Notes under the pieces: generated by a model
Seen by the model: only the letters and a program-made list of their open reading frames with translations
What the model was told of the DNA's origin: nothing
Databases searched by the model: none
Assembly: GCA_048886185.1 (NCBI GenBank)
Contig: JBHLKY010000018.1
Coordinates: 51,251-83,250 of the forward strand
Length of the DNA stretch: 32,000 bases
Direction of reading: 5' to 3'
Source: Candidatus Hermodarchaeota archaeon
GTDB lineage: Archaea; Asgardarchaeota; Heimdallarchaeia; Hodarchaeales; Hodarchaeaceae
Part shown: positions 4,120-24,549 of the stretch, in pieces
How the letters are laid out: each line of letters begins with the position of its first letter
Position numbering within the stretch: position 1 is the first letter of the stretch
Position numbers and translations under genes: made by a program

Positions 4120-4248
4120 TATGTCTACATAACAAAATAATTATAGGTTTAGTGAGGAGAGAAACTAAAATGCATATTCATCTATTCCTGAGAGAAACAA
4201 TCTTCAATGAGAATAAAATAAGCAATAAATAATTCTAAGATCTTTTCA

Positions 4249-4668
4249 TTGATGAAAAATTTCATATTCTCATTTGATCAAGGAAAGTCAGCAATTAAGA
4301 TAATTCAACCAAAAAACCAATCTTATAATATTTCCAAAATAATAGTAGTAATAAATGCAATTGAATATCTTCCTTGGGTTGTATATTCTCTTAATAACGC
4401 TCCAAATGTCAGTATTCCATTATTAACAACATCTCCTTCCCTTTCCATTAGACTTTGATATTTGAAGATTTATGCTAGTGACACTATGGGGAATAGTGGA
4501 ACTACAGAAGTCTTTTTTACTGTTCACATTTCTGTAGATAAACCCTTTTCGACCTCGGTTTCATCCATGTTCAAATCAAAAACAACTTCAACATTAGAAT
4601 TTAACTTATTCTTACCCAGTTTTCTTTTTCTGGTCTTAATTGTCTGTAACTGAAGAAAATTTCGGTGA
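4249..4668 (+). pseudogene. degraded surface-protein remnant (Ig-like module plus C-terminal membrane anchor)
   Basis: Track ORFs 4249-4458 and 4462-4653 are in the same frame, split by TGA at 4456-4458. The joined text YSLNNAPN...L*YLKIYASDTMGNSGTTEVFFTV resembles archaeal Ig-like repeats. It is followed by an S/T-rich linker, a hydrophobic stretch, a second TGA (4651-4653) and RKFR. Confidence 0.5.
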
Positions 4669-4872
4669 ATGATTACTTTATTATCCTACTTCTCCTTGTA
4701 AAATTCCTCAATTCTCTACTTTTTTGAATATTGGTTATTAAGCTGGATACCATTCAAAGTTTGTCTTATTAGGAAAAATTTCCCACTAATTCTAAATATT
4801 CTTTTTCCAGCATTCATCAATAATTAAATTAGTTTTTTAAACCCCTTTATTCTACATCCTCCAAGATCTCCA

Positions 4873-7359
4873 ATGAAAACGACAAAAAATACATTTTTAG
4901 GATTTTCCATAATATTAGGTTTTTTATTATTCTCTTCAATTGTTTCGTCTGGATTGGGACAAGTTCCAGTAATTGAATTGGATAAGGATGCTACTTATTT
5001 CGTACCTACTAGTTTAAACGATGATTGGCTATATTATGTTAATCCTCCTGGTACTGACTTCAGAGGGTCAGAAATTTTATATAAAGGTATTTCAGGAACA
5101 CATAATGCAGAATATACTTATTTCTCAAACTACAACCAGTGGTCATATTCTTCCGTGAATTTAGAGAGAAACGAATTAGTTAATGATAATTTATTAACCA
5201 ACACAACTCGGTATGGTTACCATCCTTTCTTTAATCCAGAACCATATCCTCGTGCAGTACGAATTCAATCAACTTTCAATCCCATTTATGAGTACTCACA
5301 CAGAACTGCAATAAATCTTCATATGGGCTATTCATTCAGCTTCATGGCTGAAGCTTACACAACCTATTTCGGTTTTCTTGATACCAATGAACCTTTTCTT
5401 CTAGATATTCATATCTACGACTGTGATGCGGATGGAGGAATTCTGTTTCCTGAGGCATTCCCCTTAGAGGGGCACACGATTGGATATCTCGAGAAAAAAA
5501 TGACCTATCCGTTTATTCCACGAAATAATTCAGTAACTCCATTAAATTTCACCCTCTGGTTGGATCAAGGATCACTAGTTACATTGACTCCACATGCGTG
5601 GGAATATCCTGATTATCTACCTACATTAGATGTAAATCGTACTTATTCTGGAGAAATTGATCAAGGAAAATATATGGTACTCGAAGACAATGAAATTATT
5701 TACCCTGATAACGAGATATTCAGCATAAGAATGTTTAATCTAGAACTCGAGGAGGAAAAAAGCTATGAATTATTCGTTGATTTCATAGGCCTCGAAAGGA
5801 CAAGCTGCACTAGTGGTTACCCATTCATTTGGTTAGCAGCTGAACATATTGACATTTTTCCAAATTCAGCCTTTAATCAGAATGGGTACCGGTTTCGAGC
5901 CAAGAAAAATGAAAGTGCTACATTGATACTTTTCTCTCAAAGTTGGTCATCAGGAGAGTATACAATCTACTACCAGAATATTATGTATGAACCAGAGGTA
6001 ATTGAGGCCCATTCATTAACTTTTAATAGAAATATCGAGTTAGAGTACTATACTTACTACTATTTCACTTTAGATGCTCCACATATGCTGGCTGTGAACT
6101 ATTCTTATTATTTTTATTTTGACTTATACATTCGTGGCTCTCAACTAAATGAATGGATCTATGTTGACAATCAAAATTTCTTTAGTCCAGAGTATGGAAA
6201 CCTCGTAGGAGACTGGGTAGAAGATATCGGTAATAATTGGCGTTATTTTCCAGCAGGAACTTATGCAATTAGACCTAGTTGGTTTTGGTCATCTAGTGAA
6301 ATTCGTTTTACAAAGATTCCCATATTTTCACCTTCTACAGTTTCTGTAAACAAAAACAGTATTTTTGCCTTTGAAGTTCCTCTCACAAGAAACCGAATTA
6401 ATTTCATCAATATATCAACGAATGAGCAGGTTCTACCCAATCAGATAGTGAATTATGAGTATTCCTGGGTTGGAAAATATAATGAAATGATAAAAGACTT
6501 TTATTACTCTGGTAATGTATGGATTGGAAATCGAAATGACTCTGGGCAATGGGTAAAATGGGGATCTAACAATACTCTATTAGAGTCATTTTTACCAACA
6601 AGAGATTATGAAACTCCCATCTTACTGATCAGACCTTATTTGGCAGAAAATAGTACTGGCCATGTTCTATCCTCATTCATAGCGAGATTAACTGTTAGTA
6701 CTAATGTTCCAGACATTCAACATTACACATACAATTATTGGAATGCAATTGGTGCAGGATTCTTCATTCCCAAGGACATCATCTCATCTTCAACATCATA
6801 TACTATCAATGATGACGTGTACGCGGGATCTGAACACCTTTATGGCATCCCCTTATCCCTTCCTAGGTTTAGAATCTATAATATCACTGCTTCTTTGCTT
6901 GGTAATTTCAGTACAGGCTCCTCATTAGGGGTATTAAATGCTTCATTCGATGGGATGAACATCCATGGTGGAAATCTAAACAATCTGGCAATCTTTAATA
7001 CATTAGCTTCTGGTTATGATGGAACCAAACATTGGTATTCAGTACTCATTTTAACAGTTTCTACAAGATCATATCTATATCTTGACATTACACGAACACT
7101 TAACAACACATCTTACAGAAATGCTACTCTTAAGATCTATATAAGAGAAGTTACTAGAACTCCTTTAGACATTGATATTCCCCCTTACATATACAATTCA
7201 ACACGACTTATAGAAGAGATTCGTAAGGACGAGATGTTGGCTTCTCAAATCTTAGCCCCTGAAATGAAGAAACCCACTCCTGGATTTGAACTAATCTTCA
7301 CATTGGGCACCATTGTAAGTATTGCTAAAGTCTTTTCTTATAAACGTAGAAAGAAATAA
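4873..7359 (+). CDS. secreted cell-surface glycoprotein with PGF-CTERM-like sorting signal
   Basis: N-terminal signal peptide (MKTTKNTFLGFSIILGFLLFSSIVSSG). Body is beta-rich and Y/N/S-rich with many N-x-S/T sequons. C-terminus is TPGFE, a hydrophobic helix, then KRRKK. Confidence 0.8.
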   Translation: MKTTKNTFLGFSIILGFLLFSSIVSSGLGQVPVIELDKDATYFVPTSLNDDWLYYVNPPGTDFRGSEILYKGISGTHNAEYTYFSNYNQWSYSSVNLERNELVNDNLLTNTTRYGYHPFFNPEPYPRAVRIQSTFNPIYEYSHRTAINLHMGYSFSFMAEAYTTYFGFLDTNEPFLLDIHIYDCDADGGILFPEAFPLEGHTIGYLEKKMTYPFIPRNNSVTPLNFTLWLDQGSLVTLTPHAWEYPDYLPTLDVNRTYSGEIDQGKYMVLEDNEIIYPDNEIFSIRMFNLELEEEKSYELFVDFIGLERTSCTSGYPFIWLAAEHIDIFPNSAFNQNGYRFRAKKNESATLILFSQSWSSGEYTIYYQNIMYEPEVIEAHSLTFNRNIELEYYTYYYFTLDAPHMLAVNYSYYFYFDLYIRGSQLNEWIYVDNQNFFSPEYGNLVGDWVEDIGNNWRYFPAGTYAIRPSWFWSSSEIRFTKIPIFSPSTVSVNKNSIFAFEVPLTRNRINFINISTNEQVLPNQIVNYEYSWVGKYNEMIKDFYYSGNVWIGNRNDSGQWVKWGSNNTLLESFLPTRDYETPILLIRPYLAENSTGHVLSSFIARLTVSTNVPDIQHYTYNYWNAIGAGFFIPKDIISSSTSYTINDDVYAGSEHLYGIPLSLPRFRIYNITASLLGNFSTGSSLGVLNASFDGMNIHGGNLNNLAIFNTLASGYDGTKHWYSVLILTVSTRSYLYLDITRTLNNTSYRNATLKIYIREVTRTPLDIDIPPYIYNSTRLIEEIRKDEMLASQILAPEMKKPTPGFELIFTLGTIVSIAKVFSYKRRKK

Positions 7360-7428
7360 TTTATTTCTTTCCTCTTTTTTCTACATTTCAGAGAATATCA
7401 TAAGTTCCATAAAAAGAGTTTTTCTAAT

Positions 7429-7899
7429 TTACACAACCGCATCAATACTTCTTAACCACTTCTTCATCCGTGTCCATCTGCAAGTAATGCGACTAAGGAT
7501 AAAAGGTGAGTATAAGAAAAATAGTACAACAACCAGTTCATAATTAATACCACCAGCTATAAGAATGCCATTATAACTCAATAGGATATATGGAATACGA
7601 TAAATTATTCTTATAACTTGATATAATACAGGGCTGCCAAAATATTGAAGATCACCTACATATTCTGTAGGAAGAAGATAATAACCATATCCTTCAAAGA
7701 ATAAAGCAAAACCAAATAAAATCCCACTGATTAAAGAAGTCAAAAAGAACTCAAAAGATGTTACTTCCAAGAGAAGCGAACCAATCAATAGAATAATGCT
7801 TATGATTAGGCACACTAACCCAGTTGAAATAAGGATTTTTTGAAATCGAGTTCTTGTTCCAATAGCGGTTTCCTGCTCATTTTCTGTCTCTGTAACCAA
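7429..7899 (-). CDS. hypothetical membrane protein
   Basis: 156 aa, TTG start with GAGG just upstream, 3-4 hydrophobic segments, no recognised family. Confidence 0.6.
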   Translation of the reverse strand: MVTETENEQETAIGTRTRFQKILISTGLVCLIISIILLIGSLLLEVTSFEFFLTSLISGILFGFALFFEGYGYYLLPTEYVGDLQYFGSPVLYQVIRIIYRIPYILLSYNGILIAGGINYELVVVLFFLYSPFILSRITCRWTRMKKWLRSIDAVV

Positions 7900-8070
7900 T
7901 GAAATATCCTCTCAGGTTTTGGAATAGTAAAGGTTGTTTTCAATAATAATACATAAGATATATGCAAGAAAAATCCCTAGACTCAAAACTGTTGACATGA
8001 TAGTGAATTCAGAGAGTTTAATTAGCTGAAATAATCAGGAACGATATACAGAGATTATGGTGGTTTAGAA

Positions 8071-8385
8071 ATGTATGACTGTAAAATAACTGTGTTAAAA
8101 AGAACTGTAAATGAGGATCTCATTACGGAGTATCTTAAAGAAAAGTTCCAAGAAATACAACCATGTGAGCAATTTAAAGATGGACAAGAGTTTATTGTCA
8201 CCAAAGAAAAAAGATATAGCCCTCCAGAGGGGTTCTGTAAATGGGCATGGGCAGATATTCGGCATGATTTACTAACACTCGCCTATGGAGGGACAATCCC
8301 TCACATGAAGAATGAGAAGGCGAACATTGTCGGTTGTACGGATTATTACCGTCCCGTTTATTTTAAAATTGAACGATTAGACTAA
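8071..8385 (+). CDS. TIGR04076 family protein
   Basis: Pattern KITVLKR...PCEQFKDGQEF...PEGFCKWAW...GCTDYYRPVYFKIER, with the family's conserved cysteines. Confidence 0.85.
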   Translation: MYDCKITVLKRTVNEDLITEYLKEKFQEIQPCEQFKDGQEFIVTKEKRYSPPEGFCKWAWADIRHDLLTLAYGGTIPHMKNEKANIVGCTDYYRPVYFKIERLD

Positions 8386-8417
8386 TTCAAGAAAAAAAAT
8401 CAGAGGTTGATAATAGA

Positions 8418-8717
8418 ATGGAAGAAAAGGAATCAATTTTGTACATTGTCTTATTAGCAGCAGCAATGCTAATTATGCCTGGTTCACTAGGCCAAAACAG
8501 CCCTCTTTATGAGAGTTCATTGTTGTTGATTTTGGGAGCAACAATACTCATAGCTATTGCAATGATTTTAATAGCGGTAAAAAATATTCCCTTTTTCACG
8601 CCATATATTCCTGTAGGCCTAGGAGATAGTATCATAAAGCTATTAGCTTGGATCGGGGTATTAGTTGTTGGAATTCTGATGATTATCATCAATTTGGTGA
8701 ATACATTAGCTGGTTGA
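8418..8717 (+). CDS. small hypothetical membrane protein (about 3 TM)
   Basis: 99 aa, strongly hydrophobic, GAGGT ribosome site upstream, co-oriented 32 nt after the TIGR04076 gene. Confidence 0.6.
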   Translation: MEEKESILYIVLLAAAMLIMPGSLGQNSPLYESSLLLILGATILIAIAMILIAVKNIPFFTPYIPVGLGDSIIKLLAWIGVLVVGILMIIINLVNTLAG

Positions 8718-8742
8718 GAGGCAAAACAAATAATGACTCGAT

Positions 8743-8943
8743 TTACTCATCATTTTCAAAGATAAACAATGACTCGATTGAGGTTTTGAAAACCTTGGCA
8801 ATTTTATAAGCAAGTTTGAGTGATGGATTATACTTTCCCTTCTCTAAGAAAACTATTGTTTCCCTTCTCACACCTACTTCTTTAGCAAGTTCATTCTGAG
8901 TTAAGTCATAACGTACTCTGTATTCTTTGATCCGTGTTTTCAT
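8743..8943 (-). CDS. XRE-family helix-turn-helix transcriptional regulator
   Basis: [49 protein letters not shown] is a classic small XRE sequence. ATG at 8943 is preferred over the track start at 8976, which overlaps the upstream gene; AGAGGT lies upstream of 8943. Confidence 0.92.
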
Positions 8944-8954
8944 TATAGTTCCAC

Positions 8955-9374
8955 TTAACCTCTCTGTTCGAACCAATAATAGCCAAGATAATACAAAGTA
9001 ATTCCGATCGAAATTACAGGTCCAGTTATGGCAACAAAAATTATTTCATTGATTAAATTCATTGCATTAAAAAGAATTAAGATTAGAAGAGAAATAAAAA
9101 GAAATCTAAAACCTAAATCAGCAGCTTTTAATCTGTTTTTTTCAGATCGCTCATCGTGCTTGATAATTAATTTTCCTACTCTTCGATTTCTGAACTCTCT
9201 GATCGAATAGTATAAAATTAATGAGCCAGGAATGATGAGGAAACCACTCAATATCTGATAGAATATGTCTCCTAATGAAAAAAGCCCCATTACGCCTACC
9301 AACATAATAGCTATTCCTATCAAAGTGGGTAATACTAAAGGGAGAGAACTACGCTTTTGATTTTCAATAGACAT
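8955..9374 (-). CDS. DUF2178-type membrane protein
   Basis: 4 TM segments with the 'DER.....KA...F' motif ([17 protein letters not shown]), directly upstream of an XRE gene, which is the usual context. Confidence 0.7.
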
Positions 9375-9386
9375 ATTTCACACCTC

Positions 9387-10073
9387 TTATAAAGCAAGAA
9401 CTAATATTTCTCTATTAAACCATTTCTTTGCTAAAAAATATGTCATGAAAACAAGGATCAACAAGATCAATGCTAATAGGGCATAACCTAGGATTTTGGT
9501 AAATTGGAGATAACTCACAAACAAAAAGAATATCATCAAAATGATTAATAATCCTCCTATGGGCATTAAAACAGCCCCACCTCCCTCTGCAACTGTGGGA
9601 AACCTTGATGTTCCTATTATAAAAATAAAAGTTGTGAAAATTACGGAAAGAGGCCCAATTATAAATAGTAATAAAATTGTAGATAATTGCACCAAATTAA
9701 CAGTAAAAAGAATTATTCCTGACAATAACACTTGAGTAATTAATCCAGCAACGATACAAGCCATACTCTTACCAAGAAAAATTTCTTTCTCAGAAATTGG
9801 AGTCACAAGTAAGGGTTTAATTGTTTTCCACCTTATTTCATTAATGAAAGTATTGATCCCAACAAGAGTCGTTACAAGAACAGGTAGGATCAAGAATAGC
9901 AAAAAACGGAAAAAATCATTTTCAGGTTCAGATTCAGAAAAGGCATCTAATAAACTGGGTATAAATACTAGCATTGGTAACCCAAGGGAGAAAACCATTG
10001 GTATTAGAACACGCCTAGATCCGAAGCGGATTTTTAATTCCTTTTTACAGATTACTATGGCGATTTTAATCAT
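9387..10073 (-). CDS. ABC-2 type exporter permease
   Basis: KKELK N-terminal motif, 'EIRWKTIKPLLVTPISEKEIFLGK' ABC-2 motif, about 6 TM. ATG at 10073 overlaps the ATPase stop. Confidence 0.88.
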   Translation of the reverse strand: MIKIAIVICKKELKIRFGSRRVLIPMVFSLGLPMLVFIPSLLDAFSESEPENDFFRFLLFLILPVLVTTLVGINTFINEIRWKTIKPLLVTPISEKEIFLGKSMACIVAGLITQVLLSGIILFTVNLVQLSTILLLFIIGPLSVIFTTFIFIIGTSRFPTVAEGGGAVLMPIGGLLIILMIFFLFVSYLQFTKILGYALLALILLILVFMTYFLAKKWFNREILVLAL

Positions 10074-10791
10074 GATTTTCACCTATTACTGCAAAATAAA
10101 CATCTTCTAATGAAGAAGTTCTTAATTTCGTCTTTATCTGGGAAATTTTCCCCTCACAAAGTATCTCACCTCTGTTAATAAGTGCGATAGAGTCACATAC
10201 TTTTTCTGCTCTAGTTAAAAGGTGAGTCGTCATAAATATAGTTGTATCCTCCTTTTTCAACTTATGGATCATATTTATAACTTCTTTTGCCATTAAAGGA
10301 TCAAGACCTGATGTTGGTTCATCTAAAAAAAGGATTTTAGGATTATGCATCAAGGCTCTAGCTAAATTTACTTTCTGTTTCATACCTTTTGATAGAGTAG
10401 AAATAGGAACATTTTTCTTCTCCCAAAGATCGAAAAAATCAAATAATTCCTCAATTTTTCCTTTTCTGTCACTTTTACTAATTCCATACAGACTTCCAAT
10501 AAAATTAAGATTTTCATTAATTGTTAAACTAGGATAAAGTCCAGCATCCTCTGGTACATAACCTATCAATGGTCTAATCTTTAATCCCTCTGTTGTAACA
10601 TCATATCCCGCAACGATCGCTTTACCGTATGTAGGCGATAGTAATGTTACAAATATATTCACAGTGGTAGTTTTTCCAGCACCATTAGGACCAAGATAGG
10701 CAAAAACTTCACCTACTTCAACATGAAAATTGATATCTTTTAACGCACTGAAGCCATTGAATTTTCGGGTTAGGTGTTGTGCTTTAATCAA
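10066..10791 (-). CDS. ABC exporter ATP-binding protein
   Basis: Walker A GPNGAGKT, signature LSKGMKQK, Walker B LFLDEP, H-loop TTH. TTG start with AGGTGA upstream. Confidence 0.95.
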   Translation of the reverse strand: MIKAQHLTRKFNGFSALKDINFHVEVGEVFAYLGPNGAGKTTTVNIFVTLLSPTYGKAIVAGYDVTTEGLKIRPLIGYVPEDAGLYPSLTINENLNFIGSLYGISKSDRKGKIEELFDFFDLWEKKNVPISTLSKGMKQKVNLARALMHNPKILFLDEPTSGLDPLMAKEVINMIHKLKKEDTTIFMTTHLLTRAEKVCDSIALINRGEILCEGKISQIKTKLRTSSLEDVYFAVIGENHD

Positions 10792-10814
10792 TTTTTGTGT
10801 TCACCTAGTTTGAC

Positions 10815-10855
10815 TGTTAACTATTTCTAACATCATGTTAACTATTTCTAACATC
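10815..10855. promoter_or_regulatory. tandem palindromic operator (2 x TGTTAACTATTTCTAACATC) upstream of the ABC/XRE operon
   Basis: Perfect 20-bp direct repeat at 10815-10834 and 10836-10855. Each copy contains TGTTA-N8-TAACA. It lies just downstream of a minus-strand TTTTAAA box (10865-10859). Confidence 0.7.
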
Positions 10856-10973
10856 CTCTTTAAAAGCTTTGTTTCATGGAAAAAAGAGGGTATTAATTGT
10901 ATTCTAGACTGATTTTTTGTACAGAAAACATGGATTTAGGGAAGAAATGGGTAATGAGAAATGTTATGAAACA

Positions 10974-11282
10974 ATGACTGTGAACAAAAGTGAATCTGAC
11001 TACCAATGATCAGATGCTTGGTTATTAATGGCTGTGGTAATTGTTCAAGGATTAATATCTTCTACAAAACGCCATTCAGAAGATGTTGATTCAAGTAATA
11101 AGGTTTATCAATATGAAAACATTCAAAGAATTCTAGAAGCTGGAGATTTCATGAATCATGCAATATTTACAAGTAAGGAACTGAAAAGAGGGATAAATCG
11201 ACTTTTAGAGAGTGGATATATATAAATTATCAATAAAATGATTATACCAAGCGTTAGTACTCTTTCTTGGTGTAGTGTGTAA
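10974..11282 (+). pseudogene. pseudogene of a small conserved hypothetical protein
   Basis: One frame from ATG 10974 to TAA 11282, broken by TGA (11007-11009) and TAA (11223-11225). Reads YQ*SDAWLLMAV...GDFMNHAIFTSKELKRGINRLLESGYI*, matching a remembered W-S-D-A-W-L-L...NHA family pattern. Confidence 0.5.
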
Positions 11283-11333
11283 TCCTCATGGCATAAATTT
11301 ATCTGAACTGTGTTAAAAAAGGTGGAGGAGCTA

Positions 11334-11942
11334 TTAAGAAGGTATTGATTTTGTCTTATATTTTGTCCAAGATGTCAGCAAGGGAGCCCGTTGGTTTTTT
11401 TCTATGAACTTCACAACATTAGATCCAAGTAATGAGAAAGCTTGAGGTATCTGTTCCCCAGTTTTTGCAGAAGTTTCAATGAAATGACATTTAAAGCCAT
11501 CAGGCTCAGTAAGGTTAGTAAGGTTCTTAGTAAAGGACCTGCCTTGGCTTGGAGATATATTATTATCTATTTTATCACGTAAATCGATTTTGTTTCCAAC
11601 CACAACAATCGGTACGCGACCACGTCCATTATTAGTCCATAGTTCATTAATCCATTTTGGCATATTATAAAATGATTCGGGACGAGTGATATCATACACT
11701 AATAAACCTCCAACACAACCATTGTAATATGCCTCTCGAACCCCATCAAAACGTTGTTGACCAGCAAGATCCCAAATTTGGTAACGGACTGGAAAACCAG
11801 CAATACTGTCATCACGCATGGCGAAATCTGCACCAACTGTCAATAGATATTGAGCGTTAAATCCGTGACCGATATAGCGTTCCCTAATGGCTGTTTTACC
11901 AACTCCACCATCTCCAATTAACGCGAGCTTATATACCGTCAT
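11334..11942 (-). CDS. Rab-like small GTPase (Ras superfamily, Asgard type)
   Basis: G1 GDGGVGKT, G2 YLLTVG, G3 WDLAGQ followed by RF, G4 NKID, G5 ETSAK. No C-terminal Cys prenylation motif. Confidence 0.93.
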   Translation of the reverse strand: MTVYKLALIGDGGVGKTAIRERYIGHGFNAQYLLTVGADFAMRDDSIAGFPVRYQIWDLAGQQRFDGVREAYYNGCVGGLLVYDITRPESFYNMPKWINELWTNNGRGRVPIVVVGNKIDLRDKIDNNISPSQGRSFTKNLTNLTEPDGFKCHFIETSAKTGEQIPQAFSLLGSNVVKFIEKNQRAPLLTSWTKYKTKSIPS

Positions 11943-12249: not shown

Positions 12250-13023
12250 GTGCTTAAATGCTTCAATGGAAGTGAAATGAGACTGGCTTTAAATCAAATA
12301 TTGTCAGAAAATGTTTTATTACATATTCTTTTTAGTTCTGTTTCTGGATTGCTGCTATGTGGGGCTGGAGGAGTTGTTCTATCACGAGATAAAAGTGCAC
12401 GATTGAATAAAATGTTTTTAGGATTTTTCATGGGAATTGGTTTGCATCAATTATTAGATGCTTTAATGACATATTTTTTATTTGGTCCAAAAAACACTAA
12501 TATCGCAAATATCGTTAGGGAATTTTCCATTATCTCACTAATTCTTGGATTAAGCTTTGGATCCCTAGTAGCACTAAATTTATATTATAAAGAGACTCTC
12601 TTTACACCTACAAAACTCCTAATATGGGCTACTTTAACCGTTGTATTAATATTATTTGGAATCATTGGTGATTATGTTACTTTGGGCGGGTACTATGGAG
12701 ACCAACCTAGTAAAACACGAGAAATCTTAGGATGGATTGGTATTACTGGATCAATTCTCATCTATTCAGGAATTATTGTATTTTTCTTACTTCTACTAAT
12801 GAGAGAAGTTGTGGATACCAAGGTTCAGAAAAAAATTATTGGAATAACAGTAGGATTTATTTTGATCAATCTAGTAGTTTTTTTATTTGATATTTCATTT
12901 GCTTTTCAACTGTTTAAAGAAGTCATCTCAGAACCAATCTTCCATCTTTTAGTTCATTCTCTAGCTCTTCTAGGTGGAATAATCACTATTACTGTCCTTT
13001 GGTCTCCTATATCTTCTTCCTAA
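12250..13023 (+). CDS. stand-alone seven-transmembrane protein (HisKA_7TM/7TMR-like sensor module)
   Basis: Seven hydrophobic segments by eye; the protein ends right after TM7 with no cytoplasmic output domain. TATAAAA at 12224-12230 fits a leaderless GTG start at 12250; ATG 12277 is an alternative. Confidence 0.65.
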   Translation: MLKCFNGSEMRLALNQILSENVLLHILFSSVSGLLLCGAGGVVLSRDKSARLNKMFLGFFMGIGLHQLLDALMTYFLFGPKNTNIANIVREFSIISLILGLSFGSLVALNLYYKETLFTPTKLLIWATLTVVLILFGIIGDYVTLGGYYGDQPSKTREILGWIGITGSILIYSGIIVFFLLLLMREVVDTKVQKKIIGITVGFILINLVVFLFDISFAFQLFKEVISEPIFHLLVHSLALLGGIITITVLWSPISSS

Positions 13024-13703
13024 AATCCGAAAACCTTGGCAGTCTTTATAGTTCGGTCAAGATACTGAATTAATTTCATTAATGGGTCTTTAAGTGATTG
13101 ATGAATATATCCAGAGTCAATAAACGTTCGTAACACATCAATCTTATTTTGAATGAGTTCAGGATCCTTAGCAGTGAACCCCTCTCCAAAAATTCTCTCT
13201 GCAATTACTTTTGGAGTAACTTTCATACTTTTAAGTTCCTCAATTATGTCTTTAATGAAAGTGAGCTCTTCTGCAGAACTAATTTCTCCATCTAGCTGTA
13301 CTCCAAATCGTAAAAGAATAGAATTCATCAACTGGTCGACCTCATTGGTTTCCGAAGCCTGTAATGGAAAAATTACACGAGACTCCATTTCTAGCGAAAG
13401 CTGCATAAACTGAGACGAACTTGTTAGATGATCAAAAAAACTAGCTATAATGCCTTGATTAATAGCAGATTTGAGACCTAAGATTACTATTAAGAAATTG
13501 TATCTATTGAAATAGAACAACATATCCTGTAATCCAATAGAAGATAATTCTGACCCCAACTCCTTAGAAAAAGCTAAAATAGCTGCAATAAATCCTGAGA
13601 AGAGGTTTTCATCAACTGTTTCTTTAATAAAGGACTTTTTATAAACTATAAGTCCACTTGGATGGATCATAATTATTGAATGAATAGGAAAATCTATAGA
13701 CAA
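13020..13703 (-). CDS. longin-like domain protein with C-terminal helical extension
   Basis: N-terminal IHSIIMIHPSGLIVY...DENLFSGFIAAILAFSKELG...I is the typical Asgard longin/roadblock-like signature. TTG start with GTGGT upstream. The stop overlaps the convergent 7TM gene by 4 nt. Confidence 0.7.
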   Translation of the reverse strand: MSIDFPIHSIIMIHPSGLIVYKKSFIKETVDENLFSGFIAAILAFSKELGSELSSIGLQDMLFYFNRYNFLIVILGLKSAINQGIIASFFDHLTSSSQFMQLSLEMESRVIFPLQASETNEVDQLMNSILLRFGVQLDGEISSAEELTFIKDIIEELKSMKVTPKVIAERIFGEGFTAKDPELIQNKIDVLRTFIDSGYIHQSLKDPLMKLIQYLDRTIKTAKVFGF

Positions 13704-15635: not shown

Positions 15636-18122
15636 GTGACAGAATCACTAGCATTTGAACAGCGTGAAATTGTCAAACAACCTTCTACGGTAAGAATTCG
15701 ACAATTACGTGATACTTATTTATCAGAACCATTAATGATCGATCCTGAGTATATTTATCGCTATATGGAAGCTCATCGTAAAACTGATGAAATGAATGTT
15801 CTGGAAAGAAGAGCTGAATGTCATGCTTATGCTTTAGAGAATATAACACCAGTTATAAGAGACAATGAGCTTATTGTTGGAAGTAAAACTAGATTTATTC
15901 GTGGGGCTATTCCTTACTGCAATTATGCTTCTGATTTCATCCGGAGAGTTTTTGAAAAAGAACAACAGGAAGCTCAGGATAGTGTGACAGATTTAGGAGA
16001 GGGAGGTGGAATTGCTAAAGGAAGGGAACTTGCTCAATCAGGAGACTTTGAGATATTTTCACATAAATTTCTAATTTCAAAAAATGACAAAGAACAACTG
16101 AAAGAATGTGCAGAATATTTTAAAGGTAAGAGTATGCAAGACATGGGTGATGCTTTATGGAAAACAACTTTTTCTGAAGCAAATTACATAGAAAAAGGTT
16201 GGGAAGCAGTATTATACACAGCTCCCCATGATCCAGCTCCTGAAGGAAGATATGTTCTTGATTACGAAACAGCATTAAATGAAGGTTTCTTAAAGATTAT
16301 TGATAGAATGCAAAATAATATCTTAAAAACACGAATTACTGACTACAAATCAGCAGAAAAAGTATATTTCTGGCGAGCTGGAATAAGAGTTCTAGAGGCT
16401 ACAATTAATTGGGCTGATAATTATGCTAAAGAAGCAGAAAGATTAGCACAAATGGAAGTGGATCCAAAAAGAAAAGAGGAATTATTAATAATTGCTAATC
16501 ATTGTAAATGGGTACCAAAAAATCCACCAAGAAACTTTAAGGAGGCTGTACAAGCTTTTTGGTTTATCTACTTAGCTGGTCATATTGAGGGAGCTCATCT
16601 TGGGTATTCACCTGGAAGATTCGATAGATATATGTACCCATTCTATAAAGAAGATACTGAAATTTCTGACGATGATGTACTGGAGCTACTAGAAGCTTTA
16701 CGCATAAAAATGACAGAAATTGAATATGTGGCTTCATTCTCATGGGAGGGACTCGGATCAGGAAATTTATTTCAAAATATGATTATTGGAGGGACAGATA
16801 AAAATGGAAGAAGAGGTGATAACGAAATATCAATGTTAATTTTACAAGCAGCTATAAATTGCCAAACAATACAACCAACTTTATCAATATGGTATGATGA
16901 TTCTCTTAGTGAGGAATTTCTTTTAAAAGCTGTCGAATGTGTGAAAACTGGATGTGGTTTCCCCGCTTGGTTTAATCTCAAAATCTATATCCAACATGAA
17001 TTACAAAAATCTGGATTACCAGTTCCTGTTATTAGGAAATATGCTGCTATGGGAGGCTGTACCGAACCAACCATAGAAGGGATGAGTTATGGAATTGTTC
17101 AACCAGGATTTATTAATCATGGGAAATTACTTGAATTAGCAATGTATGGGGGAAAAGATTTACGTACAGGATTGCAATTCACTGAAACAAAGATCCCTCA
17201 AAACTATAAAGAAGTGATTGAAGCTTATAAAACTCATTTAAAAGTATCTATTCAGAATTGGCAATCTTACTGGAACATCGTTATGGCCGCTCATCGACAG
17301 ACCTGTAATCTAATTTACTCTTCTGTTTTAATCCAAGATTGTGTAGAAAGAGGTTTATCTCTTGATGATGGTGGTGCAATTTGCAATGAAGTACCGACTA
17401 CTCTTTCAACAGGCATGGTAAATGTTGCAAATTCTCTTGCTGCAGTAAAAAAGCTTGTAGAAGATCAAAGACTGTATACAATGGCAGATGTTATAGAAGC
17501 TTGTAAAAGTAATTTTAGCAACAATGATGAAATGAGAAGAAAGGCCCTTGATGCTCCTAAATGGGGTAATGATGATGATTATGTGGATGAGATTTTTATC
17601 GATCTTTTTAATACCTACTGTGATTTTGTAAAGAATGGGATAAATTACCTAGGTAAACCATACGATCCATCAATGTTGGCAATTAGTACCCATACACCAT
17701 TTGGGAAAGTAACAGGAGCAACACCTGATGGTAGACTATCAGGAGTATCATTATGTGATGGAGTAACTTCACCATTCCCTGGAACTGACACCAATGGACC
17801 AGTTGCTACAATCTTATCAGCAGCGAAAGTTGACCATACTAAAATACGAGGTGGACTTCACAATATGAAATTCCATCCTAGTGCTCTAAAAGGAATTTCA
17901 GGTTCACAAAAATTAATTTCCTTGATTAAAACATATTTTGATTACCTTGGTTTTCAATTGCAATTCAATGTAGTTGATACCAAGATGTTAAGGGATGCTC
18001 AAAAGAATCCAGATAAATATCGTGATTTAATAGTCAGAGTTGCTGGATTTAGTGCTTTCTTTGTTGAATTAAGTAAGTCTATTCAAGACCAAGTTATCGA
18101 AAGAACAGAGTTAATGCTTTGA
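15636..18122 (+). CDS. glycyl radical enzyme, arylacetate-decarboxylase (HpdB-like) clade
   Basis: Glycyl loop RVAGF (G804), thiyl loop GGCTEP (C475, E477), PKWGNDD, TPDGR. Segments KTRFIRG, GEGGG, PEGR, SGNLF and QPTLSIWYDDSLSEEFLLKAVEC resemble remembered HpdB segments. Confidence 0.9.
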   Translation: MTESLAFEQREIVKQPSTVRIRQLRDTYLSEPLMIDPEYIYRYMEAHRKTDEMNVLERRAECHAYALENITPVIRDNELIVGSKTRFIRGAIPYCNYASDFIRRVFEKEQQEAQDSVTDLGEGGGIAKGRELAQSGDFEIFSHKFLISKNDKEQLKECAEYFKGKSMQDMGDALWKTTFSEANYIEKGWEAVLYTAPHDPAPEGRYVLDYETALNEGFLKIIDRMQNNILKTRITDYKSAEKVYFWRAGIRVLEATINWADNYAKEAERLAQMEVDPKRKEELLIIANHCKWVPKNPPRNFKEAVQAFWFIYLAGHIEGAHLGYSPGRFDRYMYPFYKEDTEISDDDVLELLEALRIKMTEIEYVASFSWEGLGSGNLFQNMIIGGTDKNGRRGDNEISMLILQAAINCQTIQPTLSIWYDDSLSEEFLLKAVECVKTGCGFPAWFNLKIYIQHELQKSGLPVPVIRKYAAMGGCTEPTIEGMSYGIVQPGFINHGKLLELAMYGGKDLRTGLQFTETKIPQNYKEVIEAYKTHLKVSIQNWQSYWNIVMAAHRQTCNLIYSSVLIQDCVERGLSLDDGGAICNEVPTTLSTGMVNVANSLAAVKKLVEDQRLYTMADVIEACKSNFSNNDEMRRKALDAPKWGNDDDYVDEIFIDLFNTYCDFVKNGINYLGKPYDPSMLAISTHTPFGKVTGATPDGRLSGVSLCDGVTSPFPGTDTNGPVATILSAAKVDHTKIRGGLHNMKFHPSALKGISGSQKLISLIKTYFDYLGFQLQFNVVDTKMLRDAQKNPDKYRDLIVRVAGFSAFFVELSKSIQDQVIERTELML

Positions 18123-19075
18123 TGACATTGATACCAGATAATAAAAGTCCATTATCCTTCAAAAATGAAGAAACAATAATTTTTAATATACAAGATTATT
18201 GTGTGGATGATGGGCCAGGAATAAGGACAGTGATCTTTTTTAAAGGCTGTTATCTTCGATGTCATTGGTGTTCAAACCCAGAAAGTCAATTATTTGAGCC
18301 AGAAATTTTTTACTCGGGACTAAAGTGCAAAAAATGTAGAAAATGTGAAAAAACATGTCCAAATTCCAGTATTGATTTTTCTAATATAGAATTCCCACTT
18401 TTTAACAGAAATATTTGTTCAATCTGTGAATCAAAGATTTGTACTAAGGTGTGTCCTGAAAATGCTTTAAGAACTGTTGGTTACCCTATTACAGTTTTAG
18501 ATTTACTTAAGAGAGTAAAAAAGAATTCATTATTATTCAGGAATTCCGGAGGTGGGATTACTCTCTCAGGTGGTGAACCACTGGCTCATATAGCCTTTAT
18601 TAGGGAATTCTTAAAGAAAACTACGGCATTAGGATTTTCTGTTGGGATAGAGACTTGTGGTTTTTTTAATTGGCAAAGGGTGATCGATATTATACCAAAT
18701 ATTGATTTTTTCTTTTTTGACTTGAAGATTATGGATTCAAAATTTCATAAAGCATTAACAGGGGTAAATAATGATAAGATTCACTTAAATCTTAAAAAAT
18801 TAAGTCAAACTGAGGCCAAAAAAATTACTATTTCTATCCCAATTGTTCCAGGTATTAATGATTATCTAGAAAACATTAAAAAAACCGTTAATTTATGTAC
18901 AGAATTTGGAATCAAAAAAATTCGGTTTCTAAAGTATCATGAATGGGGAAGAGGTAAATATGAAGAATTGGGTCGTCAATATTTGCTAAATGAAAGAATG
19001 AAACTACAAGAAAATGATCTTAAAACCTTTGAAAAATTGGCTAAAGAAGCTGGTCTACAAGTTACTATTATTTAG
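18122..19075 (+). CDS. glycyl-radical enzyme activating enzyme (radical SAM with 2x[4Fe-4S] insert)
   Basis: DGPGIRT, CxxxCxxC (GCYLRCHWCSNPE), ferredoxin-like inserts CKKCRKCEKTCP and CSICESKICTKVCP, GITLSGGEP. ATG overlaps the GRE stop (TGATG). Confidence 0.93.
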   Translation: MTLIPDNKSPLSFKNEETIIFNIQDYCVDDGPGIRTVIFFKGCYLRCHWCSNPESQLFEPEIFYSGLKCKKCRKCEKTCPNSSIDFSNIEFPLFNRNICSICESKICTKVCPENALRTVGYPITVLDLLKRVKKNSLLFRNSGGGITLSGGEPLAHIAFIREFLKKTTALGFSVGIETCGFFNWQRVIDIIPNIDFFFFDLKIMDSKFHKALTGVNNDKIHLNLKKLSQTEAKKITISIPIVPGINDYLENIKKTVNLCTEFGIKKIRFLKYHEWGRGKYEELGRQYLLNERMKLQENDLKTFEKLAKEAGLQVTII

Positions 19076-19331: not shown

Positions 19332-22300
19332 TTACTTTAGAAGATCACTAGTGCCATAAATTTTTTCATAAGCTAAGATAATTTTTGAGATTAATTTCCT
19401 GATATCAATAATCTTTACTATGATTGTACCTTTCTCTGAATTTTCATTATTCATGAGCTTGTGAACAACATCTACTTTTTCACGAATCTCGTCAAGAAAT
19501 TGAACAATTAATGGAAATACATCTTGATATATCAAAATATTTAATGTTAAGTCCTCTTTACCTCCCCTTGCTTGAGGCCGCTGTAGAGTAAAACCAAAAC
19601 AGAGGGATTTTAGAAGAAGGTTTTTTGATAATAGAAAGTCAAAATTTGAAGTCATTTCTCCCTCAAAGTCTTGAATATCACCTATTACACCAAAAGATCT
19701 GTCAGACAATTCGATTAATTTGGAAAGATTATCCTTTAATATTTCGGGGATTATGATAATTGGAATTGGGCCACGTCGCTGATCAAAAAAAGCTATAACT
19801 ACCCCGATTGTATGAATATCTAGAAATTCAAATGCTTCCGTTTCGCTAACTTCAGAGATTTGATTAAGTACTAATTCTTTATCCAAACCAATCAATTCTG
19901 GTTTCCTAAAGATCCTGAGGTAGATAAGTGATCCAAAAATCGTTGAGGCAATTGAGATCCCAAAAATCATCACAATAATTATCGGATCAAATAGCCTTGT
20001 CTCTTTTTCAAAATGAAATTCTTTTATTCTATCTGGATCATTAAGTATATTATAAGTAATCCCCGTATTTCCACTGCTATCAGTTGTTTCAATATAGAAT
20101 ATTATTGCTTTAGATGTATTATTATGCTCAAATGGAATAGTTACTGAATAACTATGAATATCATTAGTCATATTGACCGAGAGGAGTGACATCTTTGCAG
20201 CTTGCCAATTAGGATTGCCATTTTGCTGAAAACTAGCTTTAATACCTAATAATGTTATTTTAGTTTCTGTTATTTCTCTAAAATAATAGTAAAGAAATAC
20301 TTCTTCAATTTCAGATCCATAATCGATAATATTTGAAAGAAATGTTATATTAGTAGGATTAATGTAATCATTAAAGCCAATAGTTGGATTCCCTACAACA
20401 CGGGGCGGACTTTTGTCTTCTACATGAAATGAAAAGGTAAAATCAACATATATCATATATTCCTTATCGTTATAATCTAGAAAACAAGCCGCTTTTACTT
20501 TGGTTATGAGAGTTTTCCCTAGATAATTATCATAAAACTCGTTTAAGGGTAGATTATAATCTAAAATCCATATTGAATCGTTAATTGGACTTCTTTGAGC
20601 ATAATAAATTATTCCTGAGGAATCATTAATCAAGAATTCTACTGTAACAATTGGATTGAGACTGTAAGTAACCACTTGAAATTCATATCTTCCTTCATCA
20701 AGGTAAATACCATTATCATCGATTATTACAGGTTGCACATTGCAACTCAGAATGTATGGACGACTTTCGACATAAATCACTTTCAGATTCACACTTTTTC
20801 CTAGATCTGTGCCATCAAAAGGAGTTATTTTACATTTCCAGTACTCTCCTGGTGATGTTTCAGATGATGGTATGAATGTTTTATTTTGAGAAGCGAAAAC
20901 TTCCTCCCATTCACTAGTTTCTAATCGGCAGAACCATTGAATCTTTGATTGGTCAGTATCTATTGGTTGATCGCTATCCTCAAACTCATAAAAAAGTGAA
21001 ATAATTTCATCTTCAATAAAAAAAACTTGTCCCACCAACGTAGATCTTATTTCTGGGATAATATGACTACAACTTGAATTAAAGATATATGAATAATTGT
21101 ACACCCTAGGGGGAACATTAAGGATGAGGATAGCTCTTGAAGTTTGCTCAATTCCATAATTTAGTCCATCCTTTGGTTTAACTGTAACAAACCAACGATC
21201 ATTTTTTACCAAATAAGTGGCTGGTACTTGGTGAGAATCATTATGGAGGGGTTGTAAAACGTCGTTTTTATACCAGCGTATTTCAGTCCCTCCTTCACTA
21301 TCACCATCACGATCATAAAAACTATATTGGACATAAAGAGTATCATTACTACGAATAAGAGCTTCAAAACGATCTTTATTACTTGAAAGTTGTAGCTCTG
21401 TAATTTCAGGGTAATGATTTGGTACACTTGAAATTATTTCATTAGATGTTCCTATATTCTCTTCTGTATCATTAGCAATTATAACATAGTGAAAAATGCC
21501 TTGACTTATCATCAAAGCATTAGTCATATATCCATTACTGGAATTTTCCATCACACACCATAATTTATTTTGTGGAACACCAGCAGCAAAAGTAATATTG
21601 ACAATGACAGTATCTACTTCCCCCCAAGGGTCGCTTACATTTACTTTGAAGGTTCCGTTTTCCCCAAGTGTTGGATAATAGACTGGAGTACATATAACAG
21701 GAGTAATAAAGTCCTTGTCAAATGAATAATACTTGATATTTGAAGGAGAGTCAATATAATTCCCATTGGAATCTGAAGAATTTGTAATTTGAAATTGATA
21801 ACATCTCTTATACAAAACTAGGGTTTTGTATAACCAATATGATCCGTTATTCATCATTGAAAATTCTGTGCCATTAATTGAGATGTGTACTGTATCCACA
21901 CTAGATAAGACATCTCTAATATCAGCCCAAAATATGCCTGTACCATTCCCCAAATCATCTACTCCATGGTCAATAATTAATGGAGGATCTGTATCATATA
22001 TTTGGGTAAAATTAACTTCAGCCCAGACTTCAGAACACCAACATTCTCTATCTTGTTGTGGTAACGCTCGTAACATTACCCCTATCTCCATTGTATTCAC
22101 TTCATCCCACGTCCATTTTGATGAAGTATTGGGATTAGTCGGGTAATTCGTAGAATGATTATTCCAGTTGTCTGAAGGTTCATTCAACGATCCAAGGAAT
22201 TTTTTATCGTATGTACGTAATACTGTGCAGGCTCGAGCATTAGTAAATGATATACTAGTTCGAACGCGAATATTTAATGTTACAGAGTTGATAATACCTG

Positions 22301-22733
22301 AAATACCAGTAATATTTTGAGATTGATATGTATCTGTGTACGAAGTGGCTGTAGAATAATCCTCAATAATAAAAGAACTGTCATTATTATCTGAGACAAC
22401 TTGCCAATGAATAACTCCTAAAGGAATTTCAGAAGGAATTTCTGTTATAGTGCCATTACTAATAGGTTTTAATACTGTTAAATTGAAGTTACTAGCTAAT
22501 TTATAACTAGGTTTCTTTCTAGCGGACGAATTTAGACAATTATTTCTCAATTTGGGTATAAATTGATAAAATTCTTGTTTATATCCATTCAAAATAGCTT
22601 TACAGCAATTATATCCAGAATTGACATTCAAAGATTCAAATGTTTCAGTGCAAAGTGGAAAGAAGAAGAATGTTATGTTTGTCATAGTACCAATAATTAG
22701 AAGAGATATGACAATTTTTTTGAGATCCTCCAC
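19332..22733 (-). CDS. large single-pass cell-surface protein: signal, Ig-like repeats, TM helix, cytoplasmic longin/uDENN-like domain
   Basis: GTG start with GGAG upstream and hydrophobic N-terminus. Repeated D.xPP-started beta modules and two D.DGD.E...I.W...V.P.DG repeats (aa 440-656). TM at aa 918-940. Cytoplasmic tail contains FDQRRGP and QARGGKE. Confidence 0.8.
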   Translation of the reverse strand: MEDLKKIVISLLIIGTMTNITFFFFPLCTETFESLNVNSGYNCCKAILNGYKQEFYQFIPKLRNNCLNSSARKKPSYKLASNFNLTVLKPISNGTITEIPSEIPLGVIHWQVVSDNNDSSFIIEDYSTATSYTDTYQSQNITGISGIINSVTLNIRVRTSISFTNARACTVLRTYDKKFLGSLNEPSDNWNNHSTNYPTNPNTSSKWTWDEVNTMEIGVMLRALPQQDRECWCSEVWAEVNFTQIYDTDPPLIIDHGVDDLGNGTGIFWADIRDVLSSVDTVHISINGTEFSMMNNGSYWLYKTLVLYKRCYQFQITNSSDSNGNYIDSPSNIKYYSFDKDFITPVICTPVYYPTLGENGTFKVNVSDPWGEVDTVIVNITFAAGVPQNKLWCVMENSSNGYMTNALMISQGIFHYVIIANDTEENIGTSNEIISSVPNHYPEITELQLSSNKDRFEALIRSNDTLYVQYSFYDRDGDSEGGTEIRWYKNDVLQPLHNDSHQVPATYLVKNDRWFVTVKPKDGLNYGIEQTSRAILILNVPPRVYNYSYIFNSSCSHIIPEIRSTLVGQVFFIEDEIISLFYEFEDSDQPIDTDQSKIQWFCRLETSEWEEVFASQNKTFIPSSETSPGEYWKCKITPFDGTDLGKSVNLKVIYVESRPYILSCNVQPVIIDDNGIYLDEGRYEFQVVTYSLNPIVTVEFLINDSSGIIYYAQRSPINDSIWILDYNLPLNEFYDNYLGKTLITKVKAACFLDYNDKEYMIYVDFTFSFHVEDKSPPRVVGNPTIGFNDYINPTNITFLSNIIDYGSEIEEVFLYYYFREITETKITLLGIKASFQQNGNPNWQAAKMSLLSVNMTNDIHSYSVTIPFEHNNTSKAIIFYIETTDSSGNTGITYNILNDPDRIKEFHFEKETRLFDPIIIVMIFGISIASTIFGSLIYLRIFRKPELIGLDKELVLNQISEVSETEAFEFLDIHTIGVVIAFFDQRRGPIPIIIIPEILKDNLSKLIELSDRSFGVIGDIQDFEGEMTSNFDFLLSKNLLLKSLCFGFTLQRPQARGGKEDLTLNILIYQDVFPLIVQFLDEIREKVDVVHKLMNNENSEKGTIIVKIIDIRKLISKIILAYEKIYGTSDLLK

Positions 22734-23032: not shown

Positions 23033-23671
23033 ATGAATTATTTAGATAACTTCAAAAGTTTAAGTAAGAAGAAAAAATTGAGTAAGATGGGTATCATTGA
23101 AGAACCAAGAACTTTTTTGTATTACCAAAATCAATTTCCTGATCGCGAACCCCTTATAATGTTTGGGGGATGTATTTTTCAAAATAATGCTGATTCAACC
23201 AGTGAGGCAATTCATGACTTAAAAAAACTTTTCAAAAGCCTACTAGATTCTATAGAACAAGCCTATTTAATTCGTTTCAAGATATCCGAGGTATTAAGGG
23301 GAATAACAGGTGAACTGAATACTGAACTCACAGATCTTCAACAAAGACATCTGGAACATGCCCAAGATTATCACACTCATTTTGGGAAAAACCGTCAGCT
23401 TCGATTACTCATGATGCGGCAATTATATAAATTGGGACTTAGAAATGCTGTATGGTTTACTTCTAATAAGATCCCTCCTTTCCAGCTTTTCTTCTTGCAC
23501 TGGTTAGAAACTATTTTAAATGAATTTTTCTTGGCAGATCTATTAAACAGTCTTGCTCTTAATTTAATACCTAGATTAGGATTAAGTGCTCAAGCTCATA
23601 CGCTTTTAACAAAGTTATCAGCTGAGCTTTCGATCTACGTTCGTGACACTCAAATTCGATATACCATTTGA
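23033..23671 (+). CDS. hypothetical helical protein
   Basis: 212-aa ORF filling the space between two minus-strand genes. Leu-rich and helical; no recognised motif; start uncertain. Confidence 0.5.
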   Translation: MNYLDNFKSLSKKKKLSKMGIIEEPRTFLYYQNQFPDREPLIMFGGCIFQNNADSTSEAIHDLKKLFKSLLDSIEQAYLIRFKISEVLRGITGELNTELTDLQQRHLEHAQDYHTHFGKNRQLRLLMMRQLYKLGLRNAVWFTSNKIPPFQLFFLHWLETILNEFFLADLLNSLALNLIPRLGLSAQAHTLLTKLSAELSIYVRDTQIRYTI

Positions 23672-23850: not shown

Positions 23851-24549
23851 TTATAGTTTTACCTTCTTCAGATCATTAGAGGTGCCTTTATGTATTGATT
23901 CAAGCTTTTTATTAGTTTCTAAGAGGATTTGTATACTCTTTTCAATTTTTTTAAGCCTATTCTCAACTTCTTTAAATTTCGATTCAAACTTCTTAGCCTG
24001 AGATTCAGATTTTTTTTGATAAGAATTTACTTTCATGAAGTGAGATTCTACTTGCTTGAATTGTTTATTAATATCATCAACCTTAACAGTTATTCCGGAG
24101 TCATCTTTTGAGACTGGAATAGTAAGCTTGGGAGGAGCTGGTGGAGGAACTTCTAGCGATTCCTGTTCGATAATAGGAGGAGGAGGAGGTTGAGATGATG
24201 CTTTTAGGGGGGAATATTCAGAAGGTAATGGTTTGGGAGTTGTAATTGGCGGGATAGAATAGGATGGACTGGGTGGGGGAGGTGTTACTGGAGGAGGTGG
24301 AGTATGGGGACTTTGTGTATGGATAGAAGGAGATTTTGGAGGAGAGTCGGAAGGGGGAAAAGGAGGAACAGATGAACGTTCAGGTGCCCTTATTGGGGGG
24401 GGAGGTTCCTTAAAAGATTCTTGAAGATCTAATGGAATAATTGGTTTTATTTCATCAGCTTCACGATCTGTAAGTGCTTCTTCAGCCCCACAATGAGGGC
24501 ATGGAAAACTCATTACATAATTCCTACATTTTTTGCAAACTGGACTCAT
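23851..24549 (-). CDS. zinc-ribbon / polyproline / coiled-coil protein
   Basis: CKKC...CPHC at aa 5-20; 39 Pro in aa 49-145; unbroken heptad repeat at aa 157-220. Confidence 0.8.
   Translation of the reverse strand: MSPVCKKCRNYVMSFPCPHCGAEEALTDREADEIKPIIPLDLQESFKEPPPPIRAPERSSVPPFPPSDSPPKSPSIHTQSPHTPPPPVTPPPPSPSYSIPPITTPKPLPSEYSPLKASSQPPPPPIIEQESLEVPPPAPPKLTIPVSKDDSGITVKVDDINKQFKQVESHFMKVNSYQKKSESQAKKFESKFKEVENRLKKIEKSIQILLETNKKLESIHKGTSNDLKKVKL

Follow-up and report, generated by a model that had tools for sequence, protein, structure and literature searches.

FLCN (folliculin), SMCR8 and NPRL2 are longin proteins, the products of disease genes, that regulate Rag and Arf small GTPases on lysosomes. 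Each is the catalytic member of a complex of GTPase-activating proteins (GAPs), namely FLCN-FNIP, C9orf72-SMCR8-WDR41 or GATOR1, in which the longin pairs obligately with a partner longin (FNIP, C9orf72 or NPRL3). FLCN, SMCR8, C9orf72 and NPRL2 are reported to share a GP dipeptide that opens strand 2 next to the arginine finger; FNIP2, NPRL3, adaptins, TRAPP subunits and DENND proteins lack it, and the GP/Arg pair is described as a specific feature of GAP longins that other longins do not have (PMC12290439). Longins of the FLCN/SMCR8 type have already been described in Asgard archaea, where they were reported in 2025 as soluble proteins (PMC12290439, Traffic 2025), as have longin-GTPase-roadblock fusions in strain MK-D1 (PMC10933270). 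Here we describe a gene from a Candidatus Hermodarchaeota archaeon, which the NCBI names of its relatives put in the Hodarchaeales / Heimdall group of Asgard archaea; the gene encodes a predicted type I membrane protein of 1,133 amino acids with a cytoplasmic tail of this longin class. The gene occupies positions 19332..22733 on the minus strand of a 32,000-nucleotide stretch (hereafter the window), which is C18:51251-83250 (contig 18) of a 4.84-Mb assembly that is 96% complete. It has a GTG start and a stop codon at 19332-19334, and all features of the protein given below lie on the same strand.

The cytoplasmic tail has been characterized through its relatives. When 1.84 billion representatives were searched exhaustively with the tail, 146 clusters proved to carry the domain, 75 of them at <1e-30, and an alignment of 54 diverse tails was used for an AlphaFold2 (AF2) model and for a profile. 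The resulting tail model has a mean predicted local distance difference test score (pLDDT) of 92.8 and a predicted template modelling score of 0.88. DSSP assigns, in tail numbering, strands at 35-44 and 48-55, a helix at 57-77, strands at 86-96, 99-111 and 119-129, and helices at 140-155 and 161-186. This beta-beta-alpha-beta-beta-beta-alpha-alpha order around a five-stranded antiparallel sheet is the longin topology, and it places the predicted longin domain, of the folliculin/SMCR8 class, at residues 975-1126 (19356..19811). The preceding juxtamembrane segment (residues 941-974; 19812..19913), which comprises KPELIGLDKELV and short helices that pack on the longin core in the model, is also conserved; tail residues G9 and D11 are kept in at least 90% of the 54 tails, and pLDDT is 96-97 at tail residues 11-40.

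Alignment of the tail model to 48,161 PDB representatives with VIA, a comparison made without Foldseek, places it among longins of one kind. The best match is the longin of a Lokiarchaeal Roadblock-Longin protein (8yqg; Z 13.8, root-mean-square deviation (rmsd) 3.1 over 141 residues), followed by FLCN in the lysosomal folliculin complex (Z 12.2), C9orf72-SMCR8 (Z 11.8), Lst4 (Z 11.1), the GATOR1 subunits NPRL2/3 (Z 10.4 and 9.8) and DENND1A (Z 9.1). All of the top nine matches, at Z 9-13.8, are FLCN/FNIP/SMCR8/C9orf72/NPRL/DENN-type longins. Ordinary longins such as those of TRAPP, adaptor sigma, VAMP7 and Sec22 score Z 7-8.4, Roadblock chains Z 5.8-6.6 and GAF chains Z 6.4 or less. Roadblock/LC7 domains (MglB, LAMTOR) have an alpha-beta-beta-alpha-beta-beta-beta topology that is not followed by two C-terminal helices; the tail model has two long ones. 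Foldseek likewise returns FLCN-FNIP2 and 8yqg first, with LOV/PAS matches (E about 3e-4, TM-score 0.33, rmsd 10-13) far below the longin matches. An atlas fold search with the tail returns Asgard longin-GTPase fusions and the eukaryotic proteins C9orf72, SMCR8 and Avl9, as well as a Heimdall cluster with PF11704 in 23% of its members.

Sequence comparison reaches the same class by a longer route. Sub-threshold matches to PF11704 (Folliculin) occur in 24 of the 54 tails, the best at 1.9e-4, and they cover profile positions of about 47-113, which correspond to beta4, the ARGG loop, beta5 and alpha2. Two remote soluble relatives that lie in tandem (L017 and L018, 380-396 amino acids) exceed the PF11704 gathering cut-off of 23.3 bits, with scores of 27.6 and 28.3 bits. 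When compared with PDB sequences, phmmer of the tail and the profile of the 54 tails gave only chance-level matches and phmmer of the soluble relative L017 gave no match, while the family profile with the soluble relatives added finds 8yqg at 7.9e-5, the sole PDB sequence found. Pfam gives no match to the tail or to the entire protein even at E = 1. As the protein itself has no match to PF11704, its homology to that family is transitive and structural, and we do not assign it to PF11704. Taken with the structural matches, these data support the tail as a longin domain of the FLCN/SMCR8/NPRL2 class. A preliminary description of the window, made from the nucleotide sequence, had proposed this class from a GP hairpin and an ARG loop, and the proposal is borne out by the model, by Z scores of 9.8-12.2 against its eukaryotic members, by the PF11704 relatives and by the conservation described next.

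The tail has the GP motif of GAP longins and a candidate for their arginine finger. Translation of the minus strand places AFFDQRRGPI at 19793-19764 and TLQRPQARGGK at 19589-19557, so that ARGG is encoded at 19571-19560 and its arginine codon lies at 19568-19566; the FDQRRGP and ARGG positions and the open reading frame of the preliminary description are exact. G988-P989 (19767..19772) are tail residues 48-49 and open strand beta2 (48-55) of the model, the position that the GP motif takes in GAP longins. R1056 (19566..19568), the candidate arginine finger, is in the loop that joins beta4 (99-111) to beta5 (119-129) and covers tail residues 112-118. The arrangement is probably that of FLCN, SMCR8 and NPRL2, with GP at the beta1-beta2 turn and a conserved arginine in the beta4-beta5 loop. 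Motif counts were taken over 108 near-complete family representatives, in which tails fall to about 25% identity with this one. G988 is kept in all 108, P989 in 106 and R1056 in 106, and F983, D984, Q985, P991, A1055, G1057, G1058 and E1060 are nearly as constant. GP and R-G are also invariant across tethered and soluble Asgard forms. From the 2-1-5-4-3 order of the sheet, we infer that the GP turn and the R1056 turn are neighbours. The closest structural match differs in this respect, as 8yqg has GP but, in its alignment to the family profile, reads KEPE where the family has ARGG; this soluble protein may be of a non-catalytic partner type.

The remainder of the protein has the features of a surface protein. 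With 19-mers of Kyte-Doolittle >1.6 as the criterion, only two hydrophobic segments occur in the 1,133 residues, one at residues 6-29 directly after KK and one at 912-942. The first forms a predicted N-terminal signal peptide or anchor (residues 1-29; 22647..22733; Kyte-Doolittle 2.14 over residues 6-29), and the second a predicted single transmembrane helix (residues 918-940; 19914..19982; Kyte-Doolittle 2.36) that also appears as helix 917-941 in a full-length model. N-x-S/T sequons number 28 in the intervening ectodomain (residues 30-917; 19983..22646), compared with 12.7 +/- 3.1 in composition shuffles, and one in the tail. The 16 cysteines are similarly distributed, with 14 in residues 30-917, C28 in the signal segment and one in the tail. 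Because sequons and cysteines are distributed in this way, and because RIFRK follows directly after the second helix (a positive-inside charge), there is evidence that the 193-residue tail is cytoplasmic and the ectodomain outside, in agreement with the topology first proposed for this glycosylation-rich protein.

The nature of the ectodomain can be described in more general terms. Pfam and NCBIfam searches of the whole protein gave nothing usable (ZirU matched at 0.0027, far below its cut-off), and no Pfam family matched within the ectodomain. The full-length AF2 model, built with 13 orthologues, is poor (mean pLDDT 44.6) though nearly all beta, and can serve for no more than secondary structure and an approximate reading of tandem beta-sandwiches. 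With this low-confidence model, Foldseek matches proteins built of serial Ig/FN3 modules, among them contactin, gp130 and titin. The modules of this beta-rich, sequon-rich region remain unclassified but are probably of a beta-sandwich (Ig/FN3-like) type. The original label of Ig-like repeats is thus plausible on a weak check. Surface proteins of Hodarchaeales with DUF2341 and LamG_3 domains share about 30-48% of the ectodomain length, and an internal repeat between residues 436-545 and 546-662 is weak (E 0.007).

Judged by comparison with its relatives, the gene is real and is under purifying selection, since there are at least 12 full-length orthologues (53-79% identity) and dN/dS relative to the closest orthologue (L009) comes to 0.27 over the ectodomain and 0.16 over the tail. 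Among the sequencing runs listed for this DNA none is RNA-derived; they are sediment metagenomes, which may be its source and have no bearing on expression.

The layout of this protein is characteristic of a large family. In the 108 representatives the longin domain ends no more than 14 residues from the C-terminus in every case (median 3), and a hydrophobic helix, taken as transmembrane, occurs within 80 residues upstream of the domain in 97. On this constant module of transmembrane helix plus tail, the ectodomain-bearing proteins vary widely in length, from 0.5 to 5.8 thousand residues, with the largest reaching 5,809 amino acids. Nine clusters of the family are soluble instead of tethered. 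One of these soluble proteins (P0098) has a second GP-type longin ahead of the tail-type longin, a possible built-in longin pair, and three others (P0067, P0095 and P0106) carry an N-terminal CPICG zinc-finger-like motif and a coiled coil.

The genome that contains the window encodes one partial and eight strong copies of the family. The transmembrane-tail module closes each of the eight strong copies, and every copy with an assembled 5' end starts with a signal/anchor segment. Their open frames range from 542 amino acids, cut by contig ends, to 4,204 amino acids. Three family genes lie in tandem at C13:1-14305, with frames of 2,227 (cut by the contig end), 1,565 and 1,008 amino acids; the last of these has a partial, diverged tail domain (E 4.6e-11). 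The shortest complete members are the protein described here and its orthologues, at 1,095-1,147 amino acids.

Across the phylum, the profile matches at 1e-5 in 199 of 400 genomes. Strong matches (E <1e-30) in giant frames are found in 20 of the 21 genomes of the genus to which the window belongs, and elsewhere in one other family of the order, in two more families of the class (22/31 and 10/12 genomes) and in one outlier genome. Other matches in the phylum are weak (1e-6 to 1e-14). In five genomes examined from four other families, the domain is N-terminal in soluble proteins and there is no transmembrane segment. A quick unrooted tree separates six soluble sequences from the tethered ones by one branch (Shimodaira-Hasegawa-like approximate likelihood ratio test support 97, with long-branch warnings), which is compatible with a single origin of the tethered form. 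The Asgard longins described in the two published studies (PMC12290439, PMC10933270) are of the same class and phylum as the tail and have the GP and Arg motifs. They differ in that these soluble proteins are 250-500 amino acids long with an N-terminal longin and no transmembrane segment, whereas the tail forms the extreme C-terminus behind a transmembrane helix. The membrane-receptor layout was not found in the literature searched, and the word "transmembrane" is absent from both PMC12290439 and PMC10933270; some of the 15 Asgard longins in PMC12290439 could nevertheless be such tails.

Two observations connect this longin class with Rag-like GTPases. The first is gene fusion. In other Asgard families the tail has soluble proteins as its nearest relatives, and in three of these (L013, L014 and L016) an N-terminal longin is fused to a Rag-like GTPase; the Rag-like parts match Gtr1_RagA at 2.5e-20 to 5e-27 and LokiRagO (8yl2) at 2.3e-36. 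The second is gene adjacency. Among 38 family genes in six genomes of the genus, 8 lie no more than 3 kb from a strong Rag-like gene compared with a naive expectation of 1.1, a difference that is not a clean test because the six genomes are related, and the Rag-adjacent genes fall in four paralogue classes. For example, in the genome under study, contig 9 (G000:C9:84000-96500; L019) contains a Rag-like gene of 564 amino acids at 1876-3570 (minus strand; Gtr1_RagA 1e-29), a second of 300 amino acids at 4150-5052 (plus strand; Gtr1_RagA 2.1e-38) and a receptor paralogue of 2,131 amino acids at 5077-11472 (plus strand). As the 300-aa gene and the paralogue are on the same strand and separated by 24 bp, they look like an operon. 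Fusion and adjacency together link the longin class to Rag-like GTPases. Over the whole genome, Ras-family matches number at least 63 and strong Rag-like matches 11.

Our preferred reading, toward which we lean by a modest degree, is that the tail regulates a small GTPase at the membrane, with GAP activity as the leading form. The variable beta-rich ectodomain of a type I surface glycoprotein would face outward, and the constant C-terminal module of transmembrane helix, juxtamembrane segment and FLCN/SMCR8-type longin would sit on the inner face of the membrane. There the tail would bind and regulate a Rag-like (or Arf-like) small GTPase, most probably as a GAP that acts through R1056 near the G988-P989 hairpin, as FLCN does through R164 and SMCR8 through R147. 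The ectodomain would set where or when this regulation occurs, for instance at contacts with partner cells or particles. That this copy binds a GTPase, that it acts catalytically as a GAP and that a signal passes from ectodomain to tail is what we infer.

Several observations weigh against this reading. Most longin domains serve as platforms or guanine nucleotide exchange factors (GEFs) and not as GAPs. Eukaryotic GAP longins are heterodimers in which a DENN domain follows the longin, whereas here only seven residues follow the last helix, which ends at residue 1126, there is neither a core DENN nor a d-DENN domain after the longin, and no partner is known. The class of paralogues to which this protein belongs has no Rag-adjacent member (0/3), and there is no Rag-like gene near this copy or its orthologues. 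The ARGG loop is followed by a conserved E-N, in which this protein has D1061 (19551-19553) where 99 of the 108 representatives have N. The match to PF11704 is absent for this protein even at E 10. Finally, human FLCN reads ...SLARGF... at R164, and R1056 is only a putative equivalent of that arginine.

Some of these points would be accommodated if the tail bound a small GTPase with no GAP activity, as a docking platform, an effector site or a GEF-type longin that would recruit the GTPase or place it under the receptor. That most longin/roadblock dimers are platforms or GEFs is established knowledge, restated in PMC10933270. The structure of 8yqg, with GP but no arginine at the ARGG position, demonstrates that the longin fold can exist without an arginine finger, and this protein has neither the DENN domain nor the partner subunit of the eukaryotic GAPs. 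Nevertheless, we consider a GTPase-binding tail of this non-catalytic kind unlikely, as the loop arginine and both GP residues are almost invariant in the representatives in spite of the extent to which the tails have diverged, and as the GP/Arg pair is reported to be specific to GAP longins (PMC12290439).

Alternatively, the tail may act independently of any GTPase, as a shared module for handling giant surface proteins by sorting or placement, oligomerisation or cytoskeleton anchoring. Anchoring or sorting modules typically show such a pattern, in which one constant transmembrane-plus-tail unit forms the extreme C-terminus of very different ectodomains without exception, and 30 of the 38 family genes have no GTPase neighbour. 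The longin domains of SNAREs function in traffic without GTPases. Longin SNAREs also have a longin and a membrane anchor in one chain, and the tail matches VAMP7, Sec22b and Ykt6 at Z 7.0-7.5. These SNAREs are, unlike the receptor, tail-anchored with an N-terminal longin and a SNARE motif and have no ectodomain, and they are without the GP/Arg pair (PMC12290439). A handling role is also difficult to reconcile with the conserved residues of the tail, which are those of a GAP pocket, with the Rag-like fusions in other lineages and with Rag adjacency in four paralogue classes; we give it a low probability. The reading of the tail as a GTPase regulator, GAP activity foremost, remains the one that we favor.

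The genes of the window itself yield no GTPase partner. A Ras-family gene at 11334-11942 (minus strand) lies 7.4 kb from the receptor gene, from which it is separated by the genes for a glycyl radical enzyme and the activase of that enzyme. The preliminary description had noted it as a nearby Rab-like GTPase, but a Ras-family gene occurs within 8 kb of a randomly placed 3.4-kb gene in 19% of placements (p about 0.19), and at four orthologous loci the surroundings differ, with a Ras-like gene within 10 kb in only one. As proximity is at chance level and the neighbourhood is not conserved, we do not draw a partner from the window, and conserved GTPase synteny for this orthologue group is rejected. 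A second longin had also been proposed at 13020-13703 (minus strand). This 227-aa protein has no Pfam family; its atlas leads are to a Fuz/Mon1-type longin or roadblock (TM-scores 0.50/0.77) and to V4R clusters, and hhalign of the tail family against it found no relation, so that the atlas leads are all that stands of the proposal. Consequently, the idea that the tail works with these two window genes is very improbable, even though the GTPase is genuine (Pfam Ras 5.9e-41) and the 227-aa protein has its longin or roadblock leads, given the unrelated genes between the GTPase and the receptor, the chance-level spacing, the unconserved neighbourhood, the lack of hhalign support and a GTPase that is Ras-type and not Rag-type (Gtr1_RagA E only 0.031).

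Several other genes lie near the receptor. A further Ras-family GTPase is found just outside the window at C18:50144-50662. Divergent from the receptor is a 212-aa gene of unknown family at 23033-23671 (plus strand), the one neighbour retained at an orthologous locus; it keeps its position in the closest one (L009:9050-9640, 87% identical) and was not seen beside more distant orthologues. The 232-aa protein encoded at 23851-24549 (minus strand) opens with a CxxC...CxxC zinc ribbon, continues with a long proline-rich stretch and ends in a coiled coil; its Pfam matches are only weak coiled-coil ones. The glycyl radical enzyme (828 amino acids) and radical-SAM activase (318 amino acids) at 15636-19075 (plus strand) overlap by 4 bases, are convergent with the receptor gene and are unrelated to the receptor finding.

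Comparison with eukaryotic receptors places the architecture in context. Plexins, which are known only from eukaryotes, are receptors that cross the membrane once and combine an Ig-like/IPT-rich ectodomain with a cytoplasmic GAP of their own for Rap. They follow the same logic as that proposed here, but their GAP is of an unrelated, RasGAP-like fold, and no RasGAP family matches this protein. The initial statement that the architecture has no eukaryotic equivalent was thus overstated. With respect to FLCN and SMCR8, the tail differs in being longin-only. Additionally, FLCN and SMCR8 are recruited to lysosomes, while the tail is tethered by its own transmembrane helix to a large ectodomain.

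A more specific form of the GTPase-regulator reading is possible, if doubtful. These proteins would be receptor GAPs, in which the tails become clustered or re-oriented when the ectodomain makes a contact or binds a ligand, and thereby control the nucleotide state of Rag-like GTPases directly under the membrane. If this were true, the eukaryotic folliculin-Rag nutrient axis would descend from a surface-receptor pathway of the Heimdall group, with the membrane tether transferred later to Ragulator on lysosomes. This copy is the most practical member of the family to express, because at about 1,100 amino acids it is the shortest complete one.

In the archaea closest to eukaryotes, a domain with both motifs of the predicted catalytic pocket thus forms the fixed inner terminus of giant surface proteins of one family, and sister copies of this receptor adjoin paired Rag-like genes. 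This provides a testable picture in which an archaeon with no organelles would use at its cell membrane, under adhesion-like receptors, the switch that folliculin and its relatives operate on lysosomes, and it suggests that such a GTPase switch may already have been coupled straight to the cell surface when eukaryotes did not yet exist.

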